A stretch of DNA of 64,000 nucleotides from Octopus vulgaris (lineage: Eukaryota). The notes under the pieces were generated by a model. That model ran no database searches and was not told the origin of the DNA. It saw only the letters and a list, made by a program, of their open reading frames with translations. Numbering within the stretch: the first letter of the stretch is position 1; the number at the start of each line of letters is the position of its first letter. The stretch is from assembly GCA_951406725.2 (NCBI GenBank), contig OX597824.1:16244001-16308000 (forward strand), given 5' to 3'. Shown here in pieces: positions 9,631 through 9,984 of this stretch. The position numbers were made by a program, and so were the translations under genes.

Positions 9631-9699
9631 ATATCTGAATATAGATATATAGAATTACGAAGTCGAGGCAAATATCACCGGCTGGCCGGTGTCTGCTAC

Positions 9700-9745
9700 T
9701 CTAGGCCGATGAAGGACAATGATCCTGAAACACGGTGTCCCTAGA
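9700..9745 (+). ncRNA. Type I hammerhead ribozyme fold (U4C core) at the tip of a long hairpin
   Basis: Helix I tctagg/cctaga, core CCGAUGA, helix II agga/tcct, GAAAC, helix III acac/gtgt, GUC site at 9737-9739. Confidence 0.75.
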
Positions 9746-9984
9746 TGCAGTTCCGGCAGCCGGGGGTGTTTGTCTCCCCTTCGTATATCTATATATGGAC
9801 ACAGGAAAAAAATGTGTCAAAGCTATCAGGAGGCGTTCGATGCTTCCTAGGGCTATACAGCGGTGGTGTACCCCCTACTGTCACGTTCTTGTTAGATTGA
9901 CAGTATACAACCATTCTATCGCCCCACCACCGTACATGTCTCTACGAGAGATTTAGAAATTCAATATTTCTTATATATATATAT

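Follow-up and report, generated by a model that had tools for sequence, protein, structure and literature searches.

A hammerhead retrozyme-like repeat family of Octopus vulgaris carries Penelope-type insertion scars and is a target of LINE insertion

Animal non-LTR retrozymes are non-coding, highly paired tandem units that each carry one type I hammerhead ribozyme (Cervera & de la Pena 2020, PMC7229834; Li, Clavereau & Pollet 2026). They show target duplications longer than 4 bp and co-occur with Penelope-like elements, and the units of mussels measure 350-390 bp with about 45% GC (PMC7229834). Their mobilization by Penelope-like elements has been proposed from that co-occurrence and from sequence kinship (PMC7229834; bioRxiv 10.64898/2026.07.22.740005). 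EN+ Penelope-like elements themselves make tandem or inverted, 5′-truncated insertions in microsatellite targets, and have a palindromic helix III and an internal start in an AC-rich loop (PMC8557442; PMC11167929; PMC4209133); copies in partial tandem, with an inverted and truncated arm, a one-sided tail, and a bias toward (TA)n, have been described for them (PMC8557442). In vitro, a purified Penelope protein nicks each strand of AT-rich DNA and initiates at two internal positions that delimit the tail, and insertion does not depend on hammerhead cleavage (PMC11167929). Among LINEs, Tx1 elements target other repeats and insert in tandem around a duplication (PMC4494074).

The window analyzed here, a 64,000-nucleotide stretch of Octopus vulgaris contig OX597824.1, contains an insertion at 9635-9974 of the plus strand, flanked by (TA)n tracts of its target site on the 5′ side (9621-9634) and on the 3′ side (9975-9984). 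The insertion comprises 340 bp of a 364-bp unit (unit positions 344-364, then 1-318), is 5′-truncated, and carries one hammerhead; it is 97.8% identical to a natural unit (L009:1501-1864) by BLAST on the window and departs from the family majority at 6 of 312 positions. An earlier note on this stretch had seen a structured region at 9656-9960 inside a TA tract. The structured region is there, but these limits are too small for the element, and the surroundings are indeed TA, but in short tracts of about 14 and 10 bp.

A long hairpin on the plus strand (9656-9785; fold and covariation), prolonged outward in the fold by pairing of 9645-9653 with 9786-9794, presents at its tip a type I hammerhead motif (9700-9745) recognized by sequence, descriptor scan, and covariation. 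Helix I (9700-9705 with 9740-9745) encloses the core CCGAUGA with C at position 4 (9706-9712), helix II (9713-9726), GAA (9727-9729), a near-palindromic helix III, ACACGGUGU (9730-9738), and GUC (9737-9739), with the cut predicted after C9739. Downstream on the same strand are a stem-loop GACACA/UGUGUC (9798-9818), nearly invariant in diverged families with 98% of alignment cells paired; a stem-loop with an AGGAGGC/GCUUCCU core (9822-9854), in which 4 of 7 core pairs covary; and a stem CGGUGGUG/CACCACCG around UACUGUCA/UGACAGUA and an AC-rich bulge (9861-9932), supported by the fold and by covariation at 5 of 8 outer pairs. A sequence check placed the core, helices, outer hairpin, and downstream stems exactly where the earlier note had read them, and the three pairs of aggcaaatatc/ggtgtttgtct that depart from complementarity are, as it had said, G-U on the plus strand (9668-9773, 9673-9768, and 9675-9766). 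The unit has 44.8-45.1% GC; its hammerhead deviates at position 4 from the CUGANGA consensus while GAAA and a UH cleavage site are kept. Rfam gave no family at cut-off in the window and no hammerhead model even at E<=10. The descriptor scan, allowing C or U at position 4, found the hammerhead of the 364-bp unit on one strand only, and found two hammerheads in the window: this copy and an unrelated one on the minus strand. The latter is a type I hammerhead in an insert of ~190 bp between (TA)n tracts (34868-35058), with a canonical CUGAAGA core at 35023, a palindromic helix III, and a GUA site.

A DNA search of the 2.8-Gb genome returned 103 matches, 92-100% identical, from 40 of 2109 candidates. 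The copies are dispersed over many chromosomes as head-to-tail 364-bp units without LTR layout, and a sister family has a tandem period of 354 bp. A core pattern matched 507 times in the genome and 0 times in the control. With helix III fixed as ACAC-G-GUGU, a genome pattern gave 254 copies with C4, 5 with U4, and 0 with A or G; a second subfamily with a perfect-palindrome helix III, ACACGUGU, contributed 154 C4 copies by a pattern that itself required C4, and U4 occurred in 4 of the first 100 core matches listed. The question raised earlier, of whether U4C is a family trait or decay in the window copy, is thus settled in favor of the trait by the 254 C4 against 5 U4 copies, and because C4 lies within a CpG, the few U4 copies are likely the decayed ones. 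Two or three intact cores on the same strand were found in 9 of 81 clusters, compared with one in the window copy. The unit is taken as non-coding from its size and the absence of reverse transcriptase (RT) matches only, and pieces of the family are present in assembled contigs of four runs guessed to be RNA. By a sequence-level definition, the window element is a young animal non-LTR retrozyme: the "retrozyme-like RNA or Penelope terminus" of the earlier note is here a single thing, a non-coding unit in tandem that bears the insertion scars of Penelope elements. Its viroid-like reading is not supported: copies are dispersed through the genome and show target-site duplications. Added beyond that note's observations are the tandem organization, a pair of fixed 3′ ends, and the targeting LINE described below.

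A viroid hammerhead variant likewise has CCGA in place of CUGA and, although slower in vitro, was functional in vivo (PMC3088659); there U4C is a single variant, whereas in octopus it is fixed in hundreds of genomic copies of several subfamilies. From the animal non-LTR retrozymes, as available descriptions give them, the octopus family further differs by carrying its hammerhead at the tip of a ~130-nt hairpin and by the near-universal C4 core itself, while unit length, GC content, tandem non-coding layout, duplications, and co-occurrence with Penelope-like elements are shared. Literature searches, conducted outside the repeat databases Repbase and Dfam, returned no report of this family or of a family-wide C4 core; no cephalopod is mentioned in the PMC7229834 main text, and that of PMC13282606 contains no hammerhead, ribozyme, or retrozyme. 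A short (TA)n-flanked element elsewhere in the genome (L035:163-339), unrelated in sequence, has a long hairpin whose tip carries a CCGACGA core and a helix III of ACUC-A-GAGU, and C4 may thus have had more than one origin here.

Several other repeats accompany the insertion in the window, among them flanking SINE sequence that appears octopus-like. A repeat at 6868-7007 ends in a short hairpin plus CTAG, presumably a Helitron-like end, and carries a captured piece of ~70 bp from the sister retrozyme family; the same CTAG-hairpin end recurs at 9108-9139. A set of 7,599 pattern matches was rejected as a retrozyme count since this repeat, with its captured piece, accounts for 18 of the 30 loci fetched. 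An inverted repeat at 9244-9390 is MITE-like, with 52-nt arms that are 88% complementary and 43 nt apart. At 2081-2428 the unit profile gives weak matches on either strand (E 0.012-5.7), possibly the decayed remains of an old inverted insertion from a distant family.

Selection on RNA pairing, which the earlier note had suggested, is supported by covariation and by plus-strand G-U polymorphisms. Seventeen units, 69-98% similar and most of them found next to LINE ends, were aligned and scored at 56 pairs taken from the window fold. Both sides change in 31 of the 56 pairs, compared with 15.1 +/- 2.5 in shuffles (0/500) and 9-17 in slid controls; the rows are related by descent, so the count is no probability. 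Covariation is complete in helix I (6/6 pairs) and helix II (4/4 pairs), while the outer part of the long hairpin aligns poorly across the seventeen units (66% paired). Core variants among diverged units include CUGAUGA and a U3-A8 swap from C3-G8, the latter known in Penelope hammerheads (PMC4209133). In 14 of 17 rows, by our own reading of the alignment, the helix III sequence is palindromic either exactly or with G-U pairs allowed, as in hammerheads that act as dimers. Within the young family, stem polymorphisms present in at least 6 insertions comprised 9 Watson-Crick/G-U, 1 compensatory, 2 other, and 0 A-C changes; counted against this, G-U and A-C departures in single diverged copies were about equal (23 and 19 cells, respectively).

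The anatomy of the insertions was read from 95 loci, which resolve into 81 distinct clusters, a few of them halves of interrupted insertions. The insertions are 5′-truncated and either tandem or inverted, extend up to 3.4 units, and exceed 364 bp in 57 of 81 clusters; target duplications of 8-15 bp were found at 11 loci, and, by raw count, TA-rich DNA adjoins 73 of 116 fixed ends. Nearly all 3′ ends (116 of 132) fall at two sites 55 nt apart, 51 at unit positions 255-264 and 65 at 311-327, and none of the 132 lies at the ribozyme cut site (unit 84). In the window, the first site (unit 263) corresponds to 9919, the end of the AC-rich bulge and a putative start of reverse transcription placed as in PMC11167929, and the second (unit 318), used by the window copy, closes a 55-nt "tail" at 9920-9974. 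Among 51 inverted clusters, 38 have one arm per site and none repeats a site, while one or more ends are unclassified in the other 13; 29 direct clusters end at 318 (18 clusters) or at 263 (9 clusters) where so classified, and 1 further cluster is complex. The first query favored long arms, so a core-selected set was checked separately and paired 263 with 318 in 13 of 19 inverted clusters, and 3 of 3 inverted insertions of the sister family follow the same arm rule. One exception lies outside the 81-cluster set, a composite locus (L149) in which both arms end at 263. The 5′ ends lie near the cut site in 5 of 127 cases against 3.8 expected. Classical twin priming on one linear monomer was rejected since the arms overlap in unit coordinates and the 5′ ends are evenly spread.

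This two-start-site "tail" signature makes it likely that Penelope machinery moves the unit, and we judge it very probable that the unit is copied into TA-rich DNA by a Penelope-like reverse transcriptase-endonuclease. Tandem copies would be transcribed into multimeric RNA, whose 3′ stem-loops would be bound by the Penelope protein, probably as a dimer. The protein would nick both strands about 12 bp apart and prime internally on the RNA, with reverse transcription beginning at unit 263 for one strand and at unit 318 for the other, such that two cDNAs may yield an inverted insertion and one cDNA a direct truncated copy like that of the window. Hammerheads, as modeled here, could act in pairs joined by the self-complementary helix III and cleave the multimers to 364-nt monomers, which may be circularizable; the ribozyme cut would not set the insertion ends. 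Tandem or inverted 5′-truncated insertions, a one-ended tail, microsatellite targets, a palindromic helix III, and an internal start in an AC-rich loop are all shared with Penelope-like elements, whereas the octopus unit encodes no protein, has helices I and II of canonical size rather than a minimal hammerhead, and has a tail of 55 nt. The tail length counts against this assignment, as the usual length is 30-40 nt and that of a young Penelope element in this genome is 36. The Penelope protein in vitro showed no strand difference in start site in the available text of PMC11167929, whereas single octopus insertions use a different site per arm, and inversions with one start site per arm are undescribed in the available text of PMC7229834 and bioRxiv 10.64898/2026.07.22.740005.

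As for a helper, the genome contains a young Penelope-like family (L051:433-5670 and L052-L058) with RT plus GIY-YIG in a 781-aa frame that is open in many copies and has a CxxCxxC linker. Its members also have an upstream frame reaching 479 aa, a minimal U3-A8 hammerhead, (TA)n ends, and a tail of ~36 bp, but their ends do not resemble the unit. The unit showed no DNA similarity by blastn or profile to the Penelope ends in 28 GIY-YIG loci, where the single profile hit (L049) is a neighboring unit. As for the template, rare non-CpG variants are shared between units of one insertion in 15/155 and 17/167 comparisons versus 14/3646 between matched insertions, which is ~25 times more often. In 12 informative three-way cases, however, the variant occurs in all three units in only 2, so a single monomeric circle as the sole template fits poorly; mixed templates or later gene conversion may lie behind the two-of-three sharing.

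Three other explanations were considered. The unit could be a pLTR, the repeat that ends an autonomous Penelope element, with the copies as 5′-truncated insertions of that element, which would account for ends, tail, inversions, and targets as in Penelope elements and has a precedent in frog retrozymes related to pLTRs (bioRxiv 10.64898/2026.07.22.740005). What lies upstream of a unit, however, is another unit, as the multi-unit clusters show, and no RT/GIY-YIG frame joined to the unit was found in 95 + 13 + 30 loci tested with one Penelope protein, making this explanation very unlikely; at L111 and L127, candidate joins of a Penelope frame and the unit were dismissed since the tblastn matches are adjacent insertions only. 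An integrated viroid-like RNA replicon, or a repeat palindromic at the DNA level, for example a MITE or satellite, might be suspected from the fold of 9640-9970, which is far better than shuffles on both strands (z -6.4 on plus, z -5.4 on minus). Folding both strands, as the earlier note had proposed, gave a strong structure on each, and energy alone does not choose between them. Variable 5′ truncation, fixed 3′ ends, short duplications, dispersal over many chromosomes, a hammerhead confined to one strand, and stem polymorphisms free of A-C changes in the young family all speak against such origins, which appear extremely improbable.

The third is a dead ribozyme: the hammerhead may no longer be catalytic, its RNA structure being a handle for the Penelope protein and the templates being read-through multimers. 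C4 lowers activity in vitro (PMC3088659), cleavage was absent in 8 of 9 frog retrozymes tested (bioRxiv 10.64898/2026.07.22.740005), insertion ends ignore the cut site, and a shared variant usually occurs in only two of the three units compared. The window monomer is also predicted to fold inactively: helix III has a pair probability of 0.0, and the core CCG pairs with CGG in a fold 5.4 kcal/mol below the active one, so the motif reported earlier is present but its helix III is absent from the monomer fold. The two helix III strands are stable only as an intermolecular duplex, predicted at -9.3 kcal/mol. Against this stand the core letters and helices I-III, kept by compensatory changes, including C3-G8 to U3-A8, in families 69-98% identical, and the in vivo function of the viroid U4C variant (PMC3088659). 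Loss of catalysis is somewhat unlikely, and it would change what the ribozyme does while leaving the way of insertion as it is; judged from sequence, the C4 hammerhead is probably catalytically active.

The unit is itself a target. Units at L124 are interrupted at unit positions 19-32 by elements with ORF1-like frames, whose protein sits near zinc-knuckle and ZCCHC3-like clusters in the Atlas. A target-blind pattern for the 3′ end of the ORF1-only element found 77 genome sites, and the first 30, representing 24 separate loci, were classified. An intact hammerhead core lies 31-40 nt downstream of 17 of these 30 derivative 3′ ends (background 13 of 2000 windows); a further 4 abut a decayed unit and 5 are followed by a target duplication and then another such element, which places 26 of 30 at the retrozyme target overall. 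Of the remainder, 3 are off-target and 1 is unclear. The duplications, 13-20 bp long, match the local unit family in each case, and a 120-bp truncated ORF1-only copy (L179) also has one, which together indicate independent insertions; a single ancestral LINE-unit composite was rejected as a general explanation since each duplication matches local family sequence. The window copy retains the empty target site of these ORF1-only L1/Tx1-type elements at 9671-9687 of the plus strand, a 17-bp stretch duplicated in occupied copies.

Full-length relatives contain Pfam Exo_endo_phos (APE), RVT_1, and zf-RVT domains, with no unbroken ORF2 seen, and the closest solved relative of the LINE ORF2 is human L1 ORF2p. 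Thirteen full-length stretches were fetched, of which 11 contain the 3′ end (absent from L257 and L262); it runs straight into a hammerhead unit in 9 of 11 and into a duplication plus another element in 2 of 11, so that all 11 sit at the retrozyme target 31-40 nt before the hammerhead, and a 5′ duplication is visible in 6. The full-length LINEs target sister families, and the window's own family is targeted by ORF1-only derivatives. Several ORF1-only and full-length copies stand in tandem at one unit site, with target duplications between them, at L124, L190, L191, and L251. A further ORF1-only subfamily (L233-L235) forms tandem arrays with a period of ~1.8 kb at an apparently different target, and no hammerhead was found there. 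A zinc-knuckle ORF1, an ORF2 with APE and RT, and a fixed target with duplications are Tx1-like features; the Tx1 label is our assumption from insertion habit and ORF1 architecture, not from RT phylogeny.

With Tx1-clade LINEs (Tx1 in Tx1D, Tx1-Mar, Keno, Kibi, and Koshi; PMC4494074) the octopus LINE shares APE-RT, a zinc-knuckle ORF1, a fixed site within a repeat, duplications of ~16 bp, and tandem insertions sandwiching a duplication, the clade being set here by likeness and not by phylogeny. It differs from them, as far as the available text describes them, in that it inserts into a hammerhead retrozyme, has ORF1-only derivatives of the same habit, and lacks a poly(A) tail, and in that the target sequence varies by unit family while the distance to the core stays at 31-40 nt. 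Being targeted by a LINE likewise sets the octopus retrozyme apart from animal non-LTR retrozymes in the available descriptions. Literature searches, with Repbase and Dfam outside their scope, found no report of a hammerhead-targeting LINE. Once such LINEs have landed at the fixed site, the composites may become movable by the Penelope route: at L149 and L171, arms run from the unit into the LINE, and these composites were likely moved in that way. A broader proposal is that the protein-free RNA is primed by a Penelope dimer at two sites, one per strand, while a dedicated LINE exploits the hammerhead, the ribozyme cutting read-through LINE transcripts about 70 nt downstream to give a target-matching 3′ tail in place of poly(A); this combination is, on present evidence, doubtful.

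A family-wide CCGA core broadens the natural hammerhead consensus, and such a core causes standard searches to overlook the family. So far, how animal retrozymes move has been a hypothesis drawn from their co-occurrence with Penelope-like elements and their sequence relatedness to them; the octopus insertions bear the Penelope-specific two-start signature in their own scars, and the added rule of a different start site per strand of one insertion bears on the unresolved mechanism of Penelope inversions. As a 364-nt unit with mapped starts and an apparently intact Penelope protein occur in the same genome, the process is directly testable in vitro. LINEs that target other repeats are already known, but here one LINE lineage follows hammerhead units through diverged families, which gives site-specific retrotransposons a new class of target. 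If the proposal in which the ribozyme trims LINE transcripts were true, LINE targeting could follow each retrozyme family through sequence drift.
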